Of a stretch of 64,000 nt of DNA, positions 34,366 through 34,831 are shown piece by piece; positions within the stretch are counted from its first letter, which is position 1, and each line of letters opens with the position of its first letter. A model generated the notes under the pieces. That model was not told the DNA's origin, made no database searches, and was given only the letters and a program-made list of their open reading frames with translations. The stretch comes from Octopus sinensis (lineage: Eukaryota). The translations under genes and the position numbers were made by a program. Location of the stretch: positions 13,950,001 to 14,014,000 of the forward strand of contig NC_043002.1 in NCBI RefSeq assembly GCF_006345805.1, given 5' to 3'.

Positions 34366-34407
<42 letters not shown>

Positions 34408-34494
34408 TATTAGAGACAAAACCACTATTTTGCAAAACAAACAAGGAAAGACTTAATCAATACATAAAATTTTAATAAATAGTCAAAAAAACCG

Positions 34495-34537
34495 CCACTA
34501 CAATTGTTTCTTGTCTTGATCGACAATCTTCAGGTGG
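34495..34537 (-). ncRNA. type I hammerhead ribozyme motif
   Basis: Mirror copy of 34585-34627. Confidence 0.85.
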
Positions 34538-34584
34538 ACTTCCAATAAGTCAGTTTCATAATTTGAAACTGACTTATTGGAAGT

Positions 34585-34627
34585 CCACCTGAAGATTGTC
34601 GATCAAGACAAGAAACAATTGTAGTGG
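34585..34627 (+). ncRNA. type I hammerhead ribozyme motif
   Basis: CCAC-CTGAAGA-TTGTC-GATCAA-GACAA-GAAA-CAATTG-TA-GTGG. All stems pair, the core is intact, stem III is palindromic and the triplet is GUA. Confidence 0.85.
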
Positions 34628-34800
34628 CGGTTTTTTTGACTATTTATTAAAATTTTATGTATTGATTAAGTCTTTCCTTGTTTGTTTTGCAAAATAGTGG
34701 TTTTGTCTCTAATAATATTTTATAATATTTTACTATAAAATTGGATTTAATCCTAAATCTGATTTTTTTTCCCTGTAAATTTGGATTTATTCCCTAATAT

Positions 34801-34831
<31 letters not shown>

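Follow-up and report, generated by a model that had tools for sequence, protein, structure and literature searches.

The locus described here lies in a 64-kb stretch of the octopus genome (hereafter, the window), in which a 327-base perfect palindrome bearing a hammerhead motif on each strand stands next to a disabled Penelope-type element (PLE). A separate, larger hammerhead unit, with a repeat of 482 bp, lies in the same window. The features on which the analysis draws, in window coordinates, are as follows.

29514..31439, no strand assigned: 482-bp head-to-head tandem hammerhead unit, with arms of 1,022 and 902 nt, a turn at 30536–30537, four outward hammerheads and (TA)n at both ends
34215..34401, no strand assigned: left TA-rich microsatellite, the target, recognized from its sequence
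34398..34558, minus strand: short (inverted) arm, an exact mirror of 34564–34724, its outer 4 nt common to the left TA tract
34495..34537, minus strand: mirror copy of the hammerhead motif at 34585, found by descriptor search
34559..34563, no strand assigned: loop of 5 nt at the turn
34564..34724, plus strand: mirrored part of the long arm, from the exact arm comparison
34585..34627, plus strand: type I hammerhead motif with helices of 4, 5 and 2 bp, a palindromic loop III and U10.1–A11.1; predicted cut after 34623
34725..34815, plus strand: unmirrored 3′ tail of about 90 nt, with a 13-bp stem-loop, an imperfect direct repeat of about 40 nt and terminal (ATT)n
34737–34766, plus strand: the 13-bp stem-loop in the tail, weak (z about −2)
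34814..34836, no strand assigned: (TA)n tract between the 3′ end of the palindromic element and the presumed 3′ end of the PLE
34837..36720, minus strand: neighbouring PLE, 5′-truncated and disabled, with the C-terminal part of the reverse transcriptase (RT; 36720–36421), a CX4CxxC linker and, at the C terminus, a GIY-YIG endonuclease (EN)
36713..36733, plus strand: short inverted piece at the 5′ junction of the PLE, where the strand opposite to the PLE coding strand spells GAAMGTR, in agreement with the RT motif that should lie just upstream

Our comparison of the two arms shows that they are exact complements (161 of 161 pairs, no mismatch), which confirms the arms of 161 bp and the 5-nt loop described in the first-pass annotation, and pairing collapses outside them. 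Exact, non-simple hairpins with arms of at least 25 bp occur twice in the 64 kb, as this palindrome and as the centre of the 482-bp unit. The extent of 34398..34815 given earlier fits the unit as a whole, which does reach 34815, but not the palindrome, which ends at 34724; from there the right arm runs past the mirror, via the stem-loop and (ATT)n, into (TA)n. The stem-loop is weakly significant, with 34 of 1,000 shuffles folding equally well. At the other end, the short arm meets the left TA tract, which is long and interrupted, at a 4-nt TA microhomology. The unit is one plus-strand element of about 255 nt (34559–34815), embedded in (TA)n, whose 5′ end is joined to an inverted copy of 161 nt. 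We found no open reading frame (ORF) in this element, all three sense frames of 34559–34815 being broken by stops, and a target-site duplication is invisible by nature, as both unit ends lie within (TA)n. Searches by blastn and by a 24-mer scan allowing up to four mismatches found no further copy of the family in the 64-kb window, so that the comparison of turn points among copies proposed earlier finds no second member there. A lone AT-rich 24-mer match elsewhere in the window was set aside as chance. The unit is most likely real and apparently recent.

A type I hammerhead descriptor applied to the 64 kb returned six motifs, two in the 327-bp unit and four in the 482-bp unit, and all six point outward, away from the turn of their unit, in keeping with the common geometry that the annotation had attributed to the two. 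In shuffled sequence, relaxed descriptor matches arise at a rate of 0.05 per 64 kb, and none of 300 shuffles held a match as good as the hammerhead of the 327-bp unit. Its core (CUGAAGA / GAAA / GUA) fits the type I definition (CUGANGA, GAAA, NUH), and a 4-bp helix I, a 5-bp helix II and a 2-bp helix III closed by a palindromic tetraloop give the type I topology. The motif had been called fully paired, which goes too far for the short helix III, whose pair probability in the monomer is predicted to be about 0.03. Helix II is closed by U–A (U10.1–A11.1) and not by the usual G10.1–C11.1, which is typical of PLE and canonical hammerheads, though not absolute (PMC4209133). One outward-facing hammerhead per arm had also been claimed; each strand does carry a descriptor motif, but the second mirrors the first, and the two are neither independent nor ever on one transcript. 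Taken alone, the motif does not fold better than shuffled sequences (z −0.5), so the hammerhead call rests on the core pattern and not on energy. Rfam returned no hammerhead, with none at gathering score and none among the 43 matches down to E = 10; it was likewise blind to the motifs of the 482-bp family, so its models may miss such short hammerhead motifs. The matches to Rfam miRNA families, all below gathering scores, reflect a generic hairpin and (TA)n, and a miRNA identity was rejected.

The published evidence that bears on self-cleavage of the putative ribozyme as a monomer conflicts: monomer cleavage of hammerheads with a short helix III is described as impeded (PMC4209133), whereas a helix III of 2 bp with a tetraloop is the invertebrate type, and most invertebrate retrozymes are described as cleaving efficiently (PMC7229834). 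In folding predictions, two copies of the motif pair as a classical dimer with an 8-bp intermolecular helix (−22 kcal/mol, versus −6.5 kcal/mol for each alone). There is one motif per strand, so dimerization in cis is impossible at this locus. Folding of the whole element from the turn is predicted to disfavour the active fold (helix I probability 0.01). Read-through RNA would, as the annotation had proposed, form long double-stranded RNA (dsRNA), predicted as a 161-bp duplex of −276 kcal/mol. Every hammerhead base in it is predicted to pair with the mirror arm (P > 0.997), and such a transcript would bury the ribozyme within the hairpin.

The 482-bp unit has type I hammerheads with helices of 7, 3 and 5 bp and a U–U mismatch at the base of helix II. 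Its loop is element-derived, with no inserted bases, and its arms end no more than 4 nt apart at the turn, which lies 263 nt from the ribozyme cut site. The short arm ends at an internal TA-like stretch, the same plan as in the 327-bp unit, and the tail is about 120 nt long. The arms differ at four places, in three of them by a small indel or a change within a run of bases, which we infer to be the kind of change that read error leaves; none of the four is shared-derived, so that the direction of copying cannot be read from them. Similarly, a 2-nt microhomology at the turn was rejected as proof of snap-back, because an overlap of this size is matched at 172 of 482 positions and is uninformative. 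The 482-bp unit is a hammerhead-bearing tandem repeat and fits a non-LTR retrozyme better than the 327-bp unit does, although its monomer is longer than the 170–400 nt given in the available descriptions of retrozymes. No kinship of the 327-bp unit with the 482-bp family or with the neighbouring PLE was found in six local alignments, whose scores were reached by 2–68 of 100 shuffles, and the earlier view that the two hammerhead families are unrelated is upheld.

The neighbouring PLE is organized as RT followed by a C-terminal GIY-YIG domain (Pfam PF01541, E = 1.1e-4), with 55–60% identity to the RT-EN homologs P0001 and P0002, and has been damaged by one frameshift and two in-frame stops. At the start of its EN frame, CX4CxxC conforms to the CX2-5CxxC linker that is common to Neptune and Nematis (PMC8557442); as far as this linker can tell, the element would be ‘Neptune-like’ at most, since the linker marks Neptune or Nematis. 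Among 39 matches, its nearest relatives with a species name belong to Octopus vulgaris (66% identity over 93% of the query) and Octopus bimaculoides (78–88% over 35–46%), which makes an octopod source likely. We infer that 34837–35519 is part of this element. No hammerhead was found in that 3′ end with the standard or the relaxed descriptor, and the copy is decayed. The PLE and the 327-bp palindrome are joined by their tails within a single TA tract and have no sequence in common, a sign that two insertions used one target. The (TA)n that the annotation saw as shared with the PLE is therefore real (34814–34836) but shows a shared target only, with no sequence tie to the PLE. Octopus PLE families with a (TA)n preference occupy four rows of the supplement of PMC8557442.

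At the 5′ end of the PLE, coding-strand homology stops at 36720. On the opposite strand, the junction reads GAAMGTR where homologs have GTAMGT(K/R); MGTR occurs in 2 of 29 homolog motifs, both from Octopus bimaculoides, and the closest Octopus homologs at this RT motif have GTAMGTR. Our analysis of this junction suggests that it is possibly an inverted, non-duplicated segment of about 13 nt, of the twin-priming type, with short microhomology. The DNA past this micro-inversion is GC-rich and not (TA)n. The stretch that abuts the PLE there (36731–36905; 59% GC, 21 CpG) has no Pfam match and no second copy in the window. No host gene was found among the 136 of 170 low-complexity-filtered frames of at least 55 aa that were compared with Pfam, a search that short exons would escape; the scan returned only the GIY-YIG domain, an RT fragment and one weak DUF match. 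Two further regions, 14413–15200 and 54131–54748, hold fragments of another RT element and are probably decayed LINEs, with an RVT_1 match (E = 1e-4) for 14733–15200 and no Pfam match in their other frames.

Other repeats surround these elements. The units at 29013–29178 and 2795–2983 are related, TA-flanked inverted repeats (84% over 75 nt), the former a decayed, older palindrome that has lost 20 nt from one arm and turns at the site where 2795–2983 has a natural 12-nt palindrome; no hammerhead was found in this family, which may be a PLE end or a MITE. An older unit at 46557–46986, beside (TA)n, has inverted arms of about 125 nt (85%) and an unmirrored middle with a hammerhead-like hairpin of broken core on the minus strand, to which pieces at 42319–42480 and 47694–47804 are related. 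Four copies of an element of about 130 nt (39363–39490, 25931–26058, 16293–16415 and 13711–13812), at least three of them ending in (TA)n, carry a minimal-hammerhead-like motif with a 4-bp helix II and a variant core, and are possibly 3′ ends of another PLE family. The window also contains a tandem array at 43436–44087 (3.5 copies of a dispersed 184-bp SINE-like repeat, with single copies elsewhere in the window), which we take to resemble cephalopod SINEs, and a degenerate array at 26898–27564 (3.6 copies of 160–170 bp, about 75% identity) in which no hammerhead was found; a 36-nt inverted piece of the latter, at 27726–27760, lies inside a SINE-like repeat.

We consider it very probable that the 327-bp unit is a PLE inverted insertion. 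In the common PLE arrangement, an inverted 5′-truncated copy lies beside the 5′ end, one end carries a tail of 30–40 bp and (TA)n is targeted (PMC8557442). The octopus unit likewise has an inverted 5′-truncated copy directly at its 5′ end, in the head-to-head orientation of that definition; its terminal repeat carries a type I hammerhead, its target is a (TA)n microsatellite, and its one-sided tail, at about 90 nt, exceeds the published length. It has no RT and GIY-YIG ORF of its own and is therefore not classed as an autonomous PLE. The family has no hammerhead-bearing tandem copy in the window, so it is not a strict non-LTR retrozyme, and one arm is about 90 nt longer than the other, unlike the equal terminal inverted repeats of a MITE. 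Two 20-nt motifs of the unit had no match in the PMC8557442 supplement, nor had its short motifs in the searchable part of the PMC4209133 supplement. No report of hammerhead palindromes in octopus was found in the literature searched, outside which most subscription journals lie. The annotation had argued that a second family of the same architecture speaks for a real integration mechanism: the unit is indeed most likely an integration product and not an artefact, but the mechanism is not new, the geometry being a standard PLE signature.

Published systems share much of this anatomy. Palindromes occur at PLE head-to-head junctions, head-to-head being the most frequent arrangement, and PMC3846280 proposes self-priming, there on an antisense template. 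Inverted and tandem insertions of endonuclease-bearing PLEs (PMC8557442; Pen2a, Pen2 and Pen3a of Adineta vaga, PMC3846280) have the same head-to-head, inverted 5′-truncated copy with a palindrome at the junction, together with a tail at one end, a hammerhead in the terminal repeat and a simple AT-rich target. The A. vaga overlaps measure 15–38 bp (PMC3846280), in contrast to 327 bp of perfect palindrome in octopus; the tails of endonuclease-bearing PLEs are the shorter ones given above (PMC8557442), and the octopus unit has no ORF and a parent element that is putative. Dispersed metazoan PLE hammerheads (PMC4209133) are alike in their type I fold, 4-bp helix I and close opposite-strand pairs, and in a short helix III with a palindromic loop able to dimerize, as is predicted for the octopus motif. 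They differ in the conserved G10.1–C11.1, where the octopus motif has U10.1–A11.1 and no extra nucleotide after position 9, and in spacing: the pairs on opposite strands reported earlier lie 100–700 bp apart (PMC4209133, Cervera and de la Peña 2014), and the pair described here less than 100 bp apart. Non-LTR retrozymes (PMC7229834; bioRxiv 10.64898/2026.07.22.740005) are also non-coding and low in GC, carry type I hammerheads and are presumed to be moved by PLE proteins, as we presume for the 327-bp unit, and the invertebrate-type helix III (2 bp and a tetraloop) is the same (PMC7229834). Retrozymes are tandem, whereas with one hammerhead per strand the 327-bp unit can release neither monomer nor circle.

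Outside PLEs, two LINE systems leave inverted sequence at 5′ junctions. In L1 twin priming, antisense 5′ element sequence arises from a second target primer, which inverts without duplicating. In R2 insertions, antisense element sequence at the 5′ junction comes from cDNA self-priming (PMC11371274). R2 and L1 are site-specific or poly(A)-primed LINEs, and the arm of the 327-bp unit is duplicated, unlike in classical twin priming.

With moderate confidence, we explain the locus as a short Penelope-type insertion whose cDNA snapped back and copied itself; that snap-back in particular made the 327-bp unit is an evenly balanced judgement. The GIY-YIG endonuclease of a PLE would have nicked the TA repeat, as its known target bias suggests, and the PLE RT would have primed at the right-hand TA end and copied the RNA leftward from the tail, through the hammerhead in its intact form, as far as a point about 60 nt upstream of the cut site. 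The 3′ end of the cDNA would then have folded back over the 5-nt loop, extended itself by 161 nt and joined the left TA end at the observed 4-nt TA microhomology, so that only one side bears the tail of about 90 nt. Because the predicted cut site lies within the copied span, the RNA template would have been uncleaved or religated; for purified PLE, uncleaved RNA is reported as the main template and AT-rich DNA is cut (PMC11167929). A turn set by a ribozyme-cut RNA end was rejected, as the turn is about 60 nt upstream of the cut site in the 327-bp unit and 263 nt upstream in the 482-bp unit. The palindrome is likely an integration by-product and not a selected two-ribozyme device.

Several observations support snap-back. 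The anatomy fits the PLE pattern of an inverted 5′-truncated copy, one-sided tail and (TA)n target (PMC8557442). The arms of the 482-bp unit, 1,022 and 902 nt long, end within 4 nt of each other, where independent truncations would rarely coincide. The unit at 29013–29178 turns where another copy of its family has a natural palindrome, although the PLE status of that family is conjectural. Furthermore, cDNA snap-back has been described at the 5′ junctions of R2 insertions in cells (PMC11371274). Against the explanation, the 327-bp family is single-copy in the window and has no sequence tie to any autonomous PLE, so that its parent, the origin of the loop and its ends are putative; the tails of both units are longer than published ones; with a purified PLE, both strands of the target are extended, from two internal starts (PMC11167929); and the 5′ junction of the neighbouring PLE resembles a second priming event.

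These last two points lead to the most serious alternative, which we regard as possible but rather unlikely: both nicked target strands would prime cDNA at two internal RNA starts flanking the tail, both cDNAs would run to one common RNA 5′ end and be joined head-to-head by their 3′ ends. The purified Poseidon PLE does nick and extend both strands, its two starts delimiting the genomic tail (PMC11167929), and the 327-bp unit has a stem-loop, if a weak one, between its two arm ends; the inverted, non-duplicated MGTR segment at the neighbouring PLE junction also agrees with such a process, although it is GC-rich DNA, not (TA)n, that follows this segment. Dual priming would further require both cDNAs to stop within 4–5 nt of each other and, in the 482-bp unit, to cross two hammerheads as well.

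Formation of the palindrome after a single-copy insertion, through repair or replication of DNA that folds back where the fragile TA repeat has broken, is very improbable. The perfect identity of the arms, the junction at TA microhomology and the long, interrupted TA tract alongside would suit it, but in both young units the mirror ends within the element and takes in no host flank, and PLEs are documented to have this geometry (PMC8557442, PMC3846280). A sequencing or assembly artefact, whether a fold-back long read or a chimera, deserves equally little credence. Identity at 161 of 161 pairs around a tiny loop is what a fold-back read would give, inverted PLE structures are known to trouble assemblies (PMC8557442), and the apparent read errors in the 482-bp arms point the same way; however, mirroring is limited to the element, the flanks are unique on both sides, the arms are unequal, two unrelated families show the geometry, and the older, diverged inverted units (29013–29178 and 46557–46986) are beyond what fold-back reads produce. 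Least probable of all is a TA-targeting MITE or foldback element with a coincidental hammerhead, for despite the AT-rich inverted repeats, the TA ends and the further TA-flanked inverted-repeat units in the window, the arms are unequal, with element-like sequence running about 90 nt further on one side and no spacer, and the hammerhead is far above chance and a PLE or retrozyme marker (PMC4209133, PMC7229834).

The way in which PLEs produce tandem and inverted insertions is described as an open problem (PMC8557442), and the published models diverge: self-priming has been inferred from genomic data (PMC3846280), and priming on two strands at two sites has been observed in vitro (PMC11167929). 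The window has junctions that lean toward each model, and a census of copies could separate them. By itself the locus matters little; its value is that of a clean, ORF-free and apparently recent example. If transcribed, it would yield long dsRNA, for which a link to small-RNA silencing or to A-to-I editing is plausible, cephalopod A-to-I RNA editing being the background to this idea. More broadly, and only as a doubtful conjecture, small non-autonomous hammerhead elements may routinely enter (TA)n of the octopod genome in the form of long and perfect palindromes, head-to-head, and each of them would plant a dsRNA hairpin, silencing the family it belongs to and burying the ribozyme it carries. 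If this is true, the turns and arm ends of such short, recent, multi-family insertions would form a genome-wide record that could decide between snap-back and two-strand priming.
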